Shown: one piece after another, positions 7,518 through 24,848 of the stretch
Numbering within the stretch: position 1 is the stretch's first letter
Layout: each line of letters starts with the position of its first letter
NCBI GenBank assembly: GCA_965243835.1
Contig: OZ251578.1
Span: forward strand, 2,464,303 to 2,528,302
DNA length: 64,000 nucleotides
Direction: 5' to 3'
DNA from: Candidatus Spongiisociaceae bacterium
GTDB taxonomy: Bacteria; Actinomycetota; Acidimicrobiia; Spongiisociales; Spongiisociaceae
The notes under the pieces: model-generated
Seen by the model: the letters and a program-made list of their open reading frames with translations, nothing else
What the model was told of the DNA's origin: nothing
Databases searched by the model: none
Translations under genes and position numbers: made by a program

Positions 7518-10701
<3,184 letters not shown>

Positions 10702-18339: not shown

Positions 18340-19258
18340 TTACGCGGAGAGCCTCACATATTCCTTATTAATCTCTATTCCGATGGACTTGCGTTGCAGT
18401 TGTTGCGCCACCCGGCACGTAGTGCCGCTGCCTAGAAACGGATCCAATACAGTGTCTCCCCGGTCGGTGAACAACTGTATGAAGAACTCCGGCAACCATT
18501 CCGGGTAGGCGGCGCTGTGGCCCGTGTTATGGCAAACGGGCGGCTTATACAGCACGTTGGAGGGATACACCTTGTCCTTGCCTTCCCATGCGGCTATCCT
18601 CTGCCCCACCCCGGAACGGGTGGAGGACTCTTGACGGCTTCTGTCATTATCATTCATATTGCGTAAGCGCGCCTTGGCCCAGTCGCCGAATCGGCACTTT
18701 GACCGCCTCCTGGTTCATCTTGAAATCTTTAGTTTTGGAGAAATGCAGAATTCTTTCCCATGCATCCCGGAAACGATATTTCCACTTGCCCGGCGCCGAC
18801 GTTGTCTTATGCCAAATATATTCCTCCACCCAGCGAAACCCGGCCTGCTGTTTCAAGGCTAAAATCAACTCCAACACATAGGTGTGCCGTTCCCCGTCAA
18901 CCGCCTTCTCCTTGATGTTCAGCACGAAAGAACCGGTTGGTTTCAGGACGCGGCGCATTTCCGCCGCCCGCTCCAAAAACCATTCCACGTACTCGTCGGG
19001 GGCTATCCCGCCGTAAGTGTGCGACCGGGCATCGGCATAGGGAGGGGAGGTAACGATCAAAGCGACGCAGTCGGACGGCAAGCCCCTCATCACCTCCAAG
19101 CAGTCGACATGGTGAATGATCCGCTCCGCAACCCGGGCGGCGTCGTCCTCGCTCCGCTTCCCCGCCCGCTCCGGGGCGATCAGGGCGAGGGTGTCCAAAG
19201 TCATCTGTTTTCCTCCCTTCGGCGTACTGCCCTGCAAGATAGGACGCGCCTGTGACAT
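18340..19258 (-). pseudogene. Orphan beta-class DNA methyltransferase (SPPY motif IV before DPFLGSGTT motif I), frameshifted
   Basis: Two overlapping ORFs in different frames, 18650..19258 (SPPY) and 18340..18657 (DPFLGSGTT), together form one N6A/N4C methyltransferase. The frame changes near 18650-18660. Local GC is reduced. No adjacent endonuclease. Confidence 0.65.
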
Positions 19259-20623: not shown

Positions 20624-21418
20624 TCACACGATGCGGCGGGGGTGGGAGTAAATGTTGAACCCCCCGGGTCGCACGAACCCGGCCACGGTCACTCCCAACT
20701 CCTCGGCCAGCTCCGCAGCCAGGGAGGTGGCGGCCGACACTCCGGCCAGCAGGCTCAGCCCGGCGGCGGCTGTTTTCTGCACCAGTTCGAAGGAAACCCG
20801 CCCGGACACGGTCACCGTCATCTCCCCCAGCGGCCACCGGTCCGCGGCCAGGGCCCCCACCAGTTTGTCCATGGCGTTGTGGCGGCCCACGTCCTCCCGC
20901 AGGGCGGCCAACTCCCCGTCGGGGGTGAAAGCGGCGGCGGCGTGCAACCCTCCGGTCTGGGTGAAACCGGACTGGGCCTCCCGCATCGCCTCCATCAGTT
21001 CCGGCAACCGGTCGGCGGCCACCTCCGGCCCGGGGGGCGGGGTCGGGGAAGCCACCCGCACCGCGTCGATGGAGGCCTTGCCGCACACCCCGCACGAGGA
21101 AGTGGCGTACAGGTTGCGCCGGAACTGTTCGGGGTCCACCATCGTCCCCTCCGCCAAAACCAGGTCGTAACGGCCCTCCCCCTCGGGACCGCCCGCCGCC
21201 CGCACCTCCGCCAGCTCCGAAGGGCGAAGAATTATCCCTTCGGTGAGGGCGAACCCGCGAGCCAGCTCCCCATCGTGCCCGGGGGTGCGCATCAGCACCG
21301 CAATCGGCACGCCGCCCAGCCGAAACTCCACCGGCTCCTCGGCGGGCAACCGATCCTCCCGCACCCGGCGCCCGGCCTCCTCCACCCGCACCAAGCGCCG
21401 AACCGAAACCGCATCCAT
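20624..21418 (-). CDS. fdhD: Formate dehydrogenase accessory sulfurtransferase FdhD
   Basis: FdhD family features (SSCGVCG cysteine motif, GRHNAMDK). Start likely MDAV at 21418. Confidence 0.8.
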   Translation of the reverse strand: MDAVSVRRLVRVEEAGRRVREDRLPAEEPVEFRLGGVPIAVLMRTPGHDGELARGFALTEGIILRPSELAEVRAAGGPEGEGRYDLVLAEGTMVDPEQFRRNLYATSSCGVCGKASIDAVRVASPTPPPGPEVAADRLPELMEAMREAQSGFTQTGGLHAAAAFTPDGELAALREDVGRHNAMDKLVGALAADRWPLGEMTVTVSGRVSFELVQKTAAAGLSLLAGVSAATSLAAELAEELGVTVAGFVRPGGFNIYSHPRRIV

Positions 21419-21515
21419 CCCCCCAGTATACCACACCCGCACTCCCTACCGGAGAATCTTTATCAAACAAACCACATGGCGAACCGGAACGTACGCATCT
21501 GCTATAGTGGTGCTC

Positions 21516-22445
21516 ATGACTGAACATATTCAAACTCCAGAGCAATACGAAACATTTGCAATCGGGGAAGACGAACACGGCAACCCGATAATGTATACTT
21601 GCGATCCTATGGCACTCCGCGACCAGGGTAACCCCTCCGCCCCTAGCCATAGCAAAATGGTTTTTTTCGAAAGAACAGTTCTAGAAAAATATTTTGCGAA
21701 TCCAGACAAATATCATTTCGAAGGGTTCTATATTAAATCTTCAGAATTTTGGTTAAGTATATCGCAAATGTCATTAAGTCATGTATCTGTGTTTCTCGGC
21801 GACTTAGGCGAGAACTTACCATACAAGGAACAACGACACTGGCAAGCCTTGAATATTATACCACAAGCGGCACAACATGAACCAGACTTGTGCAGTTCTA
21901 AAAACTATGCCTACATAGAAAAATATTTTTACGCAAATTATAATAATCTAAATCAGATTTGGCATTTACGCTTTGGATGGCCTCTATTCAAGAAGGATTT
22001 TCACGACGATGACACCTACTTGGAACAATCTATACGCGTACCTACAAACGACAGTACCAAGCAATTCGATGAGCAAATAATGCATCTAGCAAGATTTATT
22101 ATCGATAATCTTAATAAAAATAAATTAGATATAACGATAGGCAAAATAAAGGACGAAAAGAGTATTAGTACGTTGGAACGCTTTCTAAATAAGCATAAAA
22201 TAAAATCACCGATTTGTAAAATATTTCGAGAGATCCAAAATTTTAGAAGTAGTGGATCTGCACATCTGAAAGGTGAGAACTACGATAAACTCAAAGAAAA
22301 ACATATGCCTTCCGCCAACCGACAGACATACTATGCCGAGCTCCTAAAAAGACTGGTAGATGAATTTACTATGCTCGCCGGTGAACTATGGCACACCAGG
22401 AAACTGGTTGTTGACACAGATGAGATAACCGGCGGATGCGGTTAG
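21516..22445 (+). CDS. Hypothetical protein of unknown function, strongly AT-rich (foreign)
   Basis: 309 aa ORF starting MTEHIQ at 21516. GC is far below the genome average. No family recognised. Confidence 0.55.
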   Translation: MTEHIQTPEQYETFAIGEDEHGNPIMYTCDPMALRDQGNPSAPSHSKMVFFERTVLEKYFANPDKYHFEGFYIKSSEFWLSISQMSLSHVSVFLGDLGENLPYKEQRHWQALNIIPQAAQHEPDLCSSKNYAYIEKYFYANYNNLNQIWHLRFGWPLFKKDFHDDDTYLEQSIRVPTNDSTKQFDEQIMHLARFIIDNLNKNKLDITIGKIKDEKSISTLERFLNKHKIKSPICKIFREIQNFRSSGSAHLKGENYDKLKEKHMPSANRQTYYAELLKRLVDEFTMLAGELWHTRKLVVDTDEITGGCG

Positions 22446-22468
22446 CCTGGGAACGGAAAGGAGGCAAA

Positions 22469-23068
22469 ATGAAGGGAACAAGCGAAGTGCCTTTTGGGCG
22501 TTACAGCGCCAGGGAGGTTTCATATTTGACGGGCGTCCCGCCGCGGCGGATAGGCCAGTGGGCGCGACACGGATGCATCCTGCGCTCCCATCCCGACCTC
22601 CCCAAATACCCGTATTCATATCAGGATGTAGCCGAGACCTTGGTGGTGTGCAAACTTTTGGAAAAAGAGTTCCGATTTTCCGATGTACGTCAGGTCATGA
22701 CACGATTGCGGGACGACTTCGGCGCTTGGCCCTTGCAGGCCGCCCCGCTTCACTTGGATGAATATCGCAGAATCCTGCTGAAATCCGATGATCTCTGGGA
22801 TTACACCTCCGGCCTGCAGGCGATAAGTGCGGCCCTCGCCGATGGAGGGTGGGCGTCCGTGGAGGAAAAACTCACGCAGATTGCGGTGGACCCGGCGGTA
22901 ATGTCGGGGACCCCTACCATACGCGGCCGTCGTATCACCGCTATGTTCGTCGGGGGGATGGGGGCGACCGCCGAAGGAAGACGGATACTGGAAAACGATT
23001 ACGGATTGGGGGCGGAAGAGATCGACCAAGGCCGCCGCTGGCGCGCCAAGGCACTGGAATACGCTTAA
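22469..23068 (+). CDS. HTH (MerR-like) plus DUF433 domain protein
   Basis: RBS GGAAAGGAGG then ATG at 22469. The C-terminal IAVDPAVMSGTPTIRGRRITAMFV matches the DUF433 core. N-terminal HTH (REVSYLTGVPPRRIGQWARHG). Confidence 0.6.
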   Translation: MKGTSEVPFGRYSAREVSYLTGVPPRRIGQWARHGCILRSHPDLPKYPYSYQDVAETLVVCKLLEKEFRFSDVRQVMTRLRDDFGAWPLQAAPLHLDEYRRILLKSDDLWDYTSGLQAISAALADGGWASVEEKLTQIAVDPAVMSGTPTIRGRRITAMFVGGMGATAEGRRILENDYGLGAEEIDQGRRWRAKALEYA

Positions 23069-23077
23069 ACTGGCGTC

Positions 23078-23812
23078 ATGCTGATGGACGATCGATCGCA
23101 AGGTCAACAGGACGAGAACGCCCCGCCGGGAGGGTGGCGCCGGGCGGCGTGGAATCTTTGCTGGCGACACGGCCTGCCTTCCCCTTTCCCGCACCGCGCC
23201 GAAACCGTGGCGCGCATACAAGAAACGGTACTGACGGATCTCCGGGCAAAAGGCGCGTCGAGCGCAGGCGCGGATGCCCTCGCGGAGTGGGGGATGAACC
23301 ATTATATACGAAAAAGAACCTTTCAAACATCACTGGCGGAGGTCGATAAGGCGAGCGACCCCCTTCGGACGCGGCCCTACCTGCTGGTGCCCGATTTGCC
23401 GGATATGATGATGAAGCCCAACGGCCGCGGGCGGTACCGACCTCTGATCCAATACTGCAAAGACTGGGGGGATCGGCCCGCCGACCGGCCCGCAATGATG
23501 GCCGACCCCCCGCCGCCGGACGCCATCCCGGGTATCGCCGTCAGCATCGCGGCGGTGGTGCATGCCCTCTGCGACCAAGACGAACACCAGACTCCGGAAT
23601 GGGTGATGCGTTATCGGTCCGCCTCCCCCCATCGACTATGGGGATTCCGTCCTTACGATCCCAACTCGGCTTACGACCAGCGCGTCTTGTCCAACTCTCC
23701 CCCCGCCTGCCGTTACCATCAAACTTACTTCACCCGCTCTTTCATCGCAGGCAGCCTCTGGTTGAGAGAACCCAACGACCAGCCTCACCCGACTACCTCC
23801 CCCATGAAATGA
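23078..23812 (+). CDS. Hypothetical protein
   Basis: 244 aa ORF following the DUF433 gene. No recognisable family. Confidence 0.4.
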   Translation: MLMDDRSQGQQDENAPPGGWRRAAWNLCWRHGLPSPFPHRAETVARIQETVLTDLRAKGASSAGADALAEWGMNHYIRKRTFQTSLAEVDKASDPLRTRPYLLVPDLPDMMMKPNGRGRYRPLIQYCKDWGDRPADRPAMMADPPPPDAIPGIAVSIAAVVHALCDQDEHQTPEWVMRYRSASPHRLWGFRPYDPNSAYDQRVLSNSPPACRYHQTYFTRSFIAGSLWLREPNDQPHPTTSPMK

Positions 23813-24288
23813 CAATCCCCGTCGAGTCCGCTAGCGGTTCGGCATAGCGGAATTGAGTTATCCGGGTGTGAATTTTGGTCGAAATTGATGAAAGTCGACT
23901 CGTCAATTTGTCAAAAATTTTTAAATAATGATAAATATAATTATTAGTAGTATTTATAATGCCGTATTAGCCTATGATTTTATAACTAAGACAGGGAACT
24001 TAACTATTGTAAAGCAACGATGCTACCCAAAATGCCCTTAATGTTTTAGGCCGCTGACCAGGGTATTTTTAGATCGCCTTTTCATAAACTATTATAAACT
24101 AGCAAGTTTCGTGCTCGGTCACGGGTTAAGTAGAAGGGCAATTGCAACTAGTGTCGTCGTCGAACCAAAGAAAGGAGAAGCCACAATAGATAATTCAACT
24201 ATTAGATAGACGGTGCGACGAGAAACCCGCCCAAACCATAACGACTAGCGAGCCAGCCAGTAATCGACATCAAATAGGAAGGAACAGA

Positions 24289-24567
24289 ATGCACAAAGTA
24301 TTTCGCATCAAATTCGACTCCGGCCTCAAATGGTTTGGCCATACCAGCGGCAGTATCGGCAAAGCCGCCGCGTCGATAGCCGCCGAGAGGGGCTTCTACG
24401 GCCCCTACAAAGTGGAGCAGGTGAACGAATTCAACACTGCGGACAAGGCCGCCGCGGAGGTAAAGCGCACGTTACGACAAATAAGGATTCATAAGGAGCG
24501 TAATATCGAATATCGTCTCCTCGTTTGGGAAAAGCCCCCTCACTCCATACGCGCTTGGCGCGGCTAA
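24289..24567 (+). CDS. Hypothetical small protein at the edge of an AT-rich non-coding stretch
   Basis: 92 aa ORF with a strong RBS AGGAAGGAACAGAATG. Preceded by about 480 bp of very AT-rich sequence with no ORF. Confidence 0.4.
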   Translation: MHKVFRIKFDSGLKWFGHTSGSIGKAAASIAAERGFYGPYKVEQVNEFNTADKAAAEVKRTLRQIRIHKERNIEYRLLVWEKPPHSIRAWRG

Positions 24568-24691
24568 TCAACCGTAACGGAAGGTCGCCCGCCCTTCGGT
24601 TCGGTGCGTCTACCAAGGCAACTCACCCAACGCTACGGTCGCCTGGGCCGGAATTTGAATTGTGACGGGCGGGGCGGGGCGGGGGGCGCGC

Positions 24692-24697: not shown

Positions 24698-24704
24698 GGG
24701 GGGT

Positions 24705-24800
24705 AGCGAACACGGGAGCTCCGGTATGGGGCTGAGAGGGAGTTTCGGCTCCGACCGTTGGCACCTGATCCGGGTAATGCCGGCGCAGGGAGACGCCCCC
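24705..24800 (+). ncRNA. TPP (thiamine pyrophosphate) riboswitch / THI element
   Basis: Conserved motifs GGGGCUGAGAGG and ACCUGAUCCGGGUAAUGCCGGCGCAGGGA lie 50-140 nt upstream of the thiamine-binding protein start codon. Confidence 0.85.
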
Positions 24801-24848
24801 TCTCCTCTCCACCGCCTCCCGGAAGACAAGGGACATAGGAGAGAACCA

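Follow-up and report, generated by a model that had tools for sequence, protein, structure and literature searches.

Is the low-GC interval between fdhD and the thi operon of a sponge-associated actinomycete one functional module, or a set of genes that came to rest in the same place? The question arises in a stretch of 64,000 nucleotides, hereafter the window, from Candidatus Spongiisociaceae bacterium (assembly GCA_965243835.1, contig OZ251578.1, positions 2,464,303 to 2,528,302). The interval contains four open reading frames (ORFs): p309, named after its 309-amino-acid product; a gene for a protein with a MerR-type helix-turn-helix (HTH) and a DUF433 domain (MerR-DUF433); p244; and p92. 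The initial annotation read this islet as a horizontally acquired defence or addiction module. In our opinion, the fdhD-thi slot is, on balance, a small hotspot of acquired and exchangeable genes, in which p309 represents a mobile, defence-like protein family and its partners are passengers. Thus the horizontal origin, together with a defence or mobile flavour of the p309 family, stands, and the single coherent module does not. The elements of the locus, in window coordinates, are as follows:

20624 to 21442, minus strand, start possibly at 21418: fdhD, the left housekeeping flank (PF02634 FdhD-NarQ, E 4e-68).
21443 to 21515, unstranded: intergenic region between the divergent fdhD and p309, at the junction of host and islet DNA (GC 49%).
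21516 to 22445, plus strand: p309, an N-terminally truncated member of an unnamed family of about 545 amino acids, with R244-x5-H250-x-K252 (profile search and alignment).
22469 to 23068, plus strand: MerR-type HTH plus DUF433 (COG2442) DNA-binding protein (PF13411, PF04255).
23078 to 23812, plus strand: p244, a lineage-specific hypothetical protein with 15 homologous clusters.
23813 to 24288, unstranded: AT-rich non-coding gap without any ORF above 46 amino acids.
24289 to 24567, plus strand: p92, a small orphan ORF with a Shine-Dalgarno-like sequence, kept in contigs L004 and L005.
24701 to 24808, plus strand: thiamine pyrophosphate (TPP) riboswitch heading the thi ABC transporter operon, the right housekeeping flank (RF00059, 65.9 bits, E 1.6e-11).

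This layout agrees throughout with the initial annotation, including the 23 bp that separate p309 from the HTH-DUF433 gene. Genes for the substrate-binding protein, permease and ATPase of the thi transporter follow the riboswitch.

Evidence for gene turnover comes from orthologous loci. By FdhD, the closest species representatives are Candidatus Spongiisocius and Spongiisociaceae metagenome-assembled genomes (73–75% identity), which are sponge-associated Acidimicrobiia. Four metagenomic contigs from closer relatives share the surE-mog-fdhD ... thi-ABC backbone, with housekeeping proteins 84–98% identical (94–98% for the fdhD product in L001, L004 and L188), and in all four a p309 orthologue stands immediately after fdhD. 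The content of the slot varies:

L004 and L005: same content as the window; the whole islet, including the gap, is 91.6% identical at the DNA level.
L001 and L002: p309 and MerR-DUF433 are parted by 0.9 kb of unrelated DNA, and none of p244, the gap and p92 is present.
L188: p309 is followed by a frameshifted 33-codon remnant of MerR-DUF433 and by p244; where the window has the gap and p92, L188 has a DUF732 protein.

In L188 p309 is an intact ORF of 318 amino acids, and p244 is intact as well. The more distant relatives L006–L009 have neither the islet nor any low-GC DNA upstream of fdhD. The initial annotation had named conservation with normal synteny in all relatives as an argument against its reading; such synteny is found in the three closest relatives, and the islet is absent from the next-closest genomes. 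In one of the distant loci (L007, Acidimicrobiia SB0664_bin_25), the fdhD-thi slot holds a 563-amino-acid DUF3352 protein of normal GC (8165 to 9856, minus strand in the locus).

No tRNA gene was found between 12 and 32 kb of the window, no convincing direct repeats or att-like sites flank the islet, and neither the ORF list nor the library scans gave an integrase or transposase ORF within it. Genes of the slot were lost and gained independently over orthologous loci, without a tRNA, an integrase or flanking repeats; the slot is therefore a hotspot of gene turnover, in which only p309, its most AT-rich gene, is constant. The separate losses show that MerR-DUF433, p244 and p92 are passengers independent of p309. 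As an islet, the locus deviates from its host in composition and is polymorphic for presence among relatives, and it lacks mobility signatures. The islet itself is of an ordinary kind: the symbiont genome has several more such small hotspots of foreign DNA within the same window.

The same loci bear on the reading closest to that of the initial annotation, in which p309 and MerR-DUF433, perhaps with p244, would form a toxin-antitoxin or defence module, the DUF433 protein acting as antitoxin or repressor of a p309 toxin that is maybe constitutively active without its N-terminal domain. The arrangement is suggestive: three genes on one strand are separated by 23 and 9 bp, p309 and MerR-DUF433 occur together in the window, L004 and L001, and an effector deprived of its sensor would plausibly need a neutraliser. 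The published record also agrees with the view of DUF433 as an antitoxin-type domain taken in the initial annotation. According to Makarova et al. (2009, PMC2701414), DUF433/COG2442 proteins are predicted to bind DNA and to act as antitoxins to PIN toxins, and some are fused to an HTH, as in Rv2018 of the Rv2018/Rv2019 pair; the family counts as validated, and a PIN-COG2442 pair has been studied experimentally as vapBC10 in Synechocystis (PMC3834315). A toxin, however, cannot outlive its antitoxin. Since p309 is intact beside a 33-codon frameshifted remnant of MerR-DUF433 in L188, and intact without p244 in L001, where 0.9 kb of unrelated DNA also parts it from MerR-DUF433, the genes therefore do not behave as a toxin-antitoxin pair. 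The GC contents of the two genes (38.5% against 59%) point to separate origins. Moreover, homologues of MerR-DUF433, p244 or p92 are found in 0 of 94 loci of the p309 family (80 from JGI metagenomes, eight IMG/VR viral contigs of 11 found, and six genome, plasmid or metagenome loci fetched singly). Scans of the four islet proteins against Pfam, NCBIfam, PHROGs and PADLOC matched only MerR_1 and DUF433; PADLOC-DB 2.0 returned zero matches for all four, so that it recognises no known defence system in the islet, and these scans revealed no PIN or other known toxin gene adjoining MerR-DUF433. We have largely rejected the toxin-antitoxin model, chiefly on the L188 remnant beside intact p309, and regard it as very unlikely.

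Base composition supports acquisition from elsewhere. The window averages 64.5% GC, and the 10-kb flanks of the locus 66.7% and 68.2%. The descent begins at the start of fdhD (itself 71.3% GC), with 49% over the 73-bp spacer between fdhD and p309; within the 309-residue ORF, from 21516 on, GC falls from about 70% to 38.5%, the sharp drop that had first drawn attention to the locus, and reaches 33% in the lowest 300-bp stretch. GC at third codon positions (GC3) is 0.38 in p309 against 0.82–0.89 in neighbouring housekeeping genes. MerR-DUF433 has 59.2% GC, p244 62.7% and p92 54.5%; the gap of 476 bp has 40.1%, with a core of 31.9% at 23860 to 24110, and by the thi leader GC is back at about 68%. 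Since its segments differ in GC, the islet is a mosaic. Horizontal acquisition of this DNA is supported by composition, by absence from L006–L009 and by the patchy taxonomic spread of the p309 family. The fdhD/p309 spacer (21443 to 21515) is 97% identical to L004, compared with 91% for p309 and 92% for the AT-rich gap. Its higher conservation is as expected if divergent promoters lie there; no consensus sigma-70 promoter was detected in the spacer.

Is p309 anything more than debris? An old insertion or deletion may have left no more than the 3' half of a defence gene, which would now be drifting to loss, the islet being junk and possibly silenced. The protein is indeed truncated relative to a norm of about 545 amino acids, and three near-invariant polar residues are gone. 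Its ratio of nonsynonymous to synonymous substitution (dN/dS) against L004 is 0.57, and its synonymous divergence (dS) about twice that of neighbouring genes. Neither a consensus promoter nor an obvious Shine-Dalgarno sequence precedes it, and other foreign genes in the window, such as a frameshifted methyltransferase, have decayed. Against this, four lineages (the window, L004, L001 and L188) all carry an intact ORF that begins with the same start codon, and dN/dS is below 1 in both comparisons (0.23 against L001). In a neutral simulation, the probability of a frame without stop codons was 0.014 at 8.6% divergence and 2.5e-4 at 18.3%. In addition, p309 retains 39 of the 50 positions that are conserved at 85% or more in its family, including the Arg/His/Lys site, and it is cut at a predicted boundary between domains. 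The identity of about 92% between the non-coding gap and its counterpart in L004 served as an approximate neutral reference; against L001, neighbouring genes show synonymous divergence of 0.22–0.36, and p309 DNA has diverged by 18%. The intact ORF, dN/dS below 1 and the rarity of stop-free frames in simulation therefore show that p309 is under purifying selection, less tightly than housekeeping genes. GC3 of p309 remains 0.34–0.42 in the three genomes compared, without amelioration. We thus consider an inert relic quite unlikely and retain the view of p309 as a maintained, acquired gene.

The initial annotation found no recognisable family for the 309-residue protein. This holds for Pfam, NCBIfam, PHROGs and PADLOC, in which p309 has no match; it does not hold beyond them. 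A word-indexed homology search, with five matches only, had suggested an orphan, and an exhaustive HMMER profile search overturned this suggestion: the p309 family comprises 1,681 representative clusters at E<=1e-3 and 627 at E<=1e-30, its members being annotated in their sources as "hypothetical". Named hosts include Planctomycetota, Ignavibacteria, Actinomadura, Streptacidiphilus, Actinomyces, Leptolyngbya and Spirosoma, and a search of phage and plasmid records placed the family on six plasmids of Pseudomonas, Rhodococcus and Streptomyces; MerR-DUF433 and p92 had no match in these records. The family is without a name in the libraries searched, widespread and without a fold match; with GAPS2 and the families of Payne et al. 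it was compared by description only.

Most family members have 530–565 residues. p309 aligns to residues ~245–540, i.e., to the C-terminal ~290 residues or about 55% of the full length, and no remnant of the N-terminal domain was found anywhere in the window. An AlphaFold2 model of the full-length relative P0244 (pLDDT 89.8, pTM 0.83, from a 109-sequence alignment) opens with a beta-rich N-terminal domain that ends at residue ~235 and continues through a loop (~235–254) and a mixed beta/alpha module (255–355) to an all-alpha module (366–544); p309 itself, modelled from a five-sequence alignment, gave an unusable result (pLDDT 47). The start of p309 falls in the loop of P0244, so p309 corresponds to the last two modules. 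Applied to this full-length relative, the structural check proposed in the initial annotation yields a confident fold, and no significant match: Foldseek of the full-length P0244 model against PDB and BFVD gave nothing at E<=1e-3 (best E 0.017), and a PDB sequence-profile search for the family returned only noise. A likeness to Avs3 (Foldseek 8dgc_B, probability 0.93, TMq 0.20; one PADLOC Avs3a match at E 0.046) was judged too weak. In PADLOC, full-length relatives have no matches save a fused NsnA domain in P0128 and scattered single-member matches at E of at least 0.0066. Short forms elsewhere (P0064, P0038) stand on contigs of 1.6–2.3 kb and are probably contig fragments; the truncated form therefore seems particular to the clade of the window.

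Genomic contexts connect the family with mobile DNA and defence. Genes of Type I restriction-modification (R-M) systems occur in 19 of the 94 loci. The family gene stands between hsdS and hsdR on one strand in 14 loci, and hsdS lies directly upstream in 16, which form 12 clusters at 90% identity within one subclade (median identity 68%); HsdM, HsdS and HsdR were confirmed by Pfam, e.g., in L137. Just 3' of the family gene in L125, L114, L138 and L140, an ORF of 72–90 amino acids resembles the start of HsdR (HSDR_N, E 1.5e-4 in L125). In L125 (4695 to 8427) and L131, an IS200/RAYT-type transposase-like ORF, so classed from its sequence, is followed by full hsdR sequence, and hsdR appears interrupted or duplicated at its 5' end. 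Other neighbours include OLD-like AAA_15-TOPRIM, DUF1016/YhcG PDDEXK and Prok-E2/ThiF/JAB proteins, and in the eight viral contigs and four other loci scanned, large serine recombinases were the commonest. On plasmid pPma4326F of P. syringae, the full-length WP_007250370.1 (526 amino acids) is the first cargo gene after gmtY-gmtZ-gmtX, and the cargo of Gamma-Mobile-Trio (GMT) islands is enriched for defence and offence tools (GMT/GAPS paper). On R. fascians pFiD188 the family gene adjoins Phd/RelE and RES genes; in Streptacidiphilus it lies near TraG and DnaB genes; and one copy, in an islet that also contains SLFN-nSTAND, EVE and Uma2 genes, adjoins an IS66 transposase gene. In P0128 (883 amino acids), a C-terminal fusion to NsnA/GmrSD_N (DUF262; PADLOC NsnA, E 9e-58) is a domain-fusion link to known defence nucleases. 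The family gene has a lower GC content than its flanking DNA in 63 of 70 loci (mean difference -7.9 points). These neighbourhoods (R-M operons, a GMT island, prophage-like contigs and insertion sequence elements) bear out the suspicion that homologs of the 309-residue protein keep mobile or defence company; its islet partners do not recur among them. The analysis thus shows p309 to be a truncated member of a large family tied to mobile elements and R-M operons. The defence link is guilt by association and sampling-biased, yet coherent. Guilt by embedding is a validated predictor of defence function (10.1101/2024.01.29.577857; PMC11411939), and a gene lying within a Type I R-M, BREX or Hma operon very often turns out to be a defence system (10.1101/2024.01.29.577857).

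The strict hsdS-X-hsdR order within one subclade would also fit a subunit-like accessory role. Family members may accordingly be accessory or regulatory factors of Type I R-M systems or mobile elements, serving restriction alleviation, HsdR control, entry exclusion or maintenance, with p309 a domesticated fragment in an unrelated host role. The family has no detectable likeness to a nuclease or other enzyme fold, and many members stand alone among ordinary genes (e.g., in L086). Dependence on HsdR is excluded, however, because 75 of the 94 members are not beside R-M genes, and the GmrSD_N/NsnA fusion together with the OLD-like ATPase-TOPRIM, DUF1016 PDDEXK and E2/ThiF/JAB neighbours points to immunity; embedded genes tested so far have mostly proved to be defences (10.1101/2024.01.29.577857). 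We therefore regard an accessory role as unlikely and proceed from a defence-like family. The window copy of p309 lies outside any Type I R-M operon, between fdhD and MerR-DUF433, and within the region analysed (18–28 kb) the sole methyltransferase, a Type II N6_N4 enzyme located 2.3 kb away, carries a frameshift.

The strongest family signature, R-S-x-x-x-A-H-x-K-G, lies in the last, all-alpha module. Among 146–223 family members, conservation is 98% for Arg and 99–100% for His, and 93–95% for Lys; p309 carries R244, H250 and K252 (motif R244-SSGSA-H250). The R-x5-H spacing fits the conserved Rx4-6H motif of HEPN RNases. By fold, HEPN domains are all-alpha helical bundles whose last core helix begins with the motif; the C-terminal region of the P0244 model is all-alpha, with the motif at the end of a helix. 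The lone HEPN trace in the searches was one member that matched PADLOC CARF_HEPN at E 0.0066. That the family acts as an RNase in the manner of HEPN enzymes would be a mechanistic guess from the motif, not a statement of membership, and we hold it to be rather doubtful.

Taken together, these data suggest the following scheme. In a clade of sponge-associated Acidimicrobiia, kin of Candidatus Spongiisocius, the fdhD-thi slot would swap acquired accessory genes. Full-length members of the p309 family would each serve phage defence or abortive infection as a single gene, carried as cargo by R-M operons, GMT islands, regions resembling integrative and conjugative elements, plasmids and prophage-like contigs. 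Their C-terminal helical module would be the effector, working through the Arg/His/Lys site and possibly as an RNase in which the Arg/His pair is employed in the manner of HEPN enzymes, and the N-terminal domain, missing in p309, may be a sensor or a restraining, regulatory part. p309 would then be a derivative of the effector half, its activity retained and perhaps altered. In its boldest form, which we put forward tentatively as a possibility short of probable, the p309 family would be an undescribed, widespread single-protein immune effector with a new fold, a PrrC-like link to R-M systems and an Arg/His/Lys site, and the symbiont copy a natural effector-only version, kept by selection and cut exactly at a domain boundary.

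Several observations weigh against this scheme. p309 has lost the family Asp at its positions 70 and 83 and the family Asn at 84, and its dN/dS against the closest relative is fairly high. Since the short forms elsewhere look like fragments, the truncated protein may have lost the parental activity. HEPN Pfam families were unmatched by 86 members even at E<=1, no HEPN structure is among the top 50 Foldseek matches of the full-length P0244 model, and in that model the motif (R496-H502) lies at the C-terminal end of helix 479–501 (DSSP), not at a helix start. The R-M-embedded loci belong to one subclade, so that embedding could reflect few ancestral events. It should also be noted that the metagenome loci were all retrieved with one N-terminal peptide pattern and that the viral collection was pre-selected, which biases the neighbours seen.

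The passengers deserve separate comment. MerR-DUF433 matches MerR_1 (PF13411; E 1e-6, 29.1 bits) and DUF433 (PF04255; E 5e-6, 26.6 bits against a cut-off of 23.6, residues 149–196 of the 210-amino-acid ORF), both above cut-offs. Its likely start is the ATG at 22469 behind GGAGG, 23 bp past the p309 stop, which gives a protein of 199 amino acids. The HTH is GlnR/TnrA-like (7tea, E 0.0017) and dN/dS is 0.22–0.27. The searches run gave no relatives in plasmids or JGI metagenomes. Most likely, this protein is an orphaned antitoxin-type transcription regulator.

p244 contains 11.5% proline, in agreement with its first description as proline-rich, and has a dN/dS of 0.28. Every traced contig of its 15 clusters comes from the same set of metagenome assemblies; relatives occur at normal GC in varied and variable defence-like contexts of sponge-metagenome Acidimicrobiia. 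Paralogue loci are L102 (5001 to 6382), L103 (5001 to 7265) and L105 (4282 to 6166). One paralogue shares a 4-bp overlap with a nucleotidyltransferase that is weakly DUF6036-like (21.3 bits, under the cut-off) and is followed by a PLDc_2-SNF2 helicase; another sits before an AlbA_2/HATPase_c_4 protein; and a tandem duplicate precedes a 113-amino-acid protein resembling the C-terminal part of the DUF6036-like nucleotidyltransferase. Judging by these neighbours, p244 might be the partner of a nucleotidyltransferase-type toxin.

The gap had been described as an extremely AT-rich stretch of about 480 bp devoid of ORFs, which is accurate at 476 bp and no ORF above 46 amino acids. It has no Rfam match at E<=1 and no notable repeats, and its promoter-like hexamers are as expected from an AT-rich composition. 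Its 92% identity to L004 is close to the synonymous divergence of about 0.1 of neighbouring genes; it is missing in L001, and only 77 bp match in L188. p92 is conserved in L004 and L005 only (dN/dS 0.37) and has no match in family libraries, phages or plasmids.

The window holds several further foreign islets of toxin or nuclease type. A second low-GC patch at 18340 to 19258 (minus strand) contains the N6_N4 DNA methyltransferase mentioned above, frameshifted near 18650 into ORFs of 202 and 105 amino acids. At 2917 to 4420 in L188, an intact methyltransferase of 288 amino acids stands beside an RE_Eco47II endonuclease, which is unmatched anywhere in the window; by comparison of these sequences, the patch represents a decayed Type II R-M system. 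L004 carries a PhdYeFM and PIN pair in this same slot, upstream of surE. Elsewhere in the window are a NYN-domain protein (PF01936; 1130 to 1774, minus strand) in DNA of 40–50% GC, a Fic/DOC protein (PF02661; 4828 to 6027, minus strand), the 5' end of which extends to the next low-GC stretch, and a DUF4268 protein (PF14088; 6126 to 7100, plus strand) in DNA of down to 31% GC. The largest low-GC gene of the window (60130 to 61953, minus strand; 33–37% GC) encodes a multi-pass membrane protein of 607 amino acids without a Pfam match, and GC is moderately low (47–53%) at 41500 to 42500.

These results matter in several respects. An unnamed family of about 1,700 clusters is a concrete candidate for a new anti-phage protein and offers an R/H motif that can be mutated. 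For locus annotation in general, tight spacing and an antitoxin-type domain are not enough to establish a toxin-antitoxin module, and four orthologous loci sufficed to separate the genes. The persistence of a foreign gene fragment of 38% GC under purifying selection in a symbiont genome of 70% GC, without amelioration, is an evolutionary puzzle. If p309 is truly an effector-only truncation of a new immune effector, it would provide a ready-made dissection of sensor and effector.

How does the locus compare with known systems? With the DUF433-PIN pairs of VapBC type (Rv2018/Rv2019 and Synechocystis VapBC10), the window shares a protein, here of 199 amino acids, that joins DUF433 to an extra HTH. 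Unlike in those pairs, the HTH is of MerR type, no PIN or known toxin gene adjoins it, and L188 has lost the gene and kept its neighbours. The cargo of GMT islands, including the GAPS anti-phage systems, is represented in the p309 family by WP_007250370.1, placed first after gmtX; this protein is unnamed in the GMT/GAPS paper (0 occurrences), and GAPS2, which lacks known domains, was compared with the family by description only.

The embedded candidates of Payne et al. (2024), termed HEC and PDC, provide a closer parallel. HEC-08, for example, is a HEPN protein that needs the His of its Rx4-6H motif (Payne et al. 2024), and the p309 family shares with such candidates the embedding evidence, the single-gene form and R-x(4-6)-H. 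It differs in being absent from PADLOC 2.0 and in having a fold without a PDB match, the comparison with the 3,231 embedded families having been made by description.

PrrC and RloC, the latent HEPN anticodon nucleases encoded between hsdS and hsdR, are of particular relevance. PrrC is reported to be almost exclusively R-M-embedded (10.1101/2024.01.29.577857), whereas most members of the p309 family are not linked to R-M genes, and the window copy is truncated with no hsd genes nearby. The family also lacks the N-terminal ABC-ATPase/P-loop domain of these nucleases: ten full-length members gave no P-loop or ABC match in Pfam, and the N-terminus is beta-rich in the model. Nor does it match HEPN families in Pfam, or PADLOC at E below 0.0066, the presence of a PrrC model in PADLOC being unconfirmed. 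Nevertheless, like PrrC and RloC, members of the p309 family consist of a single polypeptide whose C-terminal helical region bears an Arg/His pair that looks essential, and one subclade occupies the very same position, from hsdS through the family gene to hsdR.

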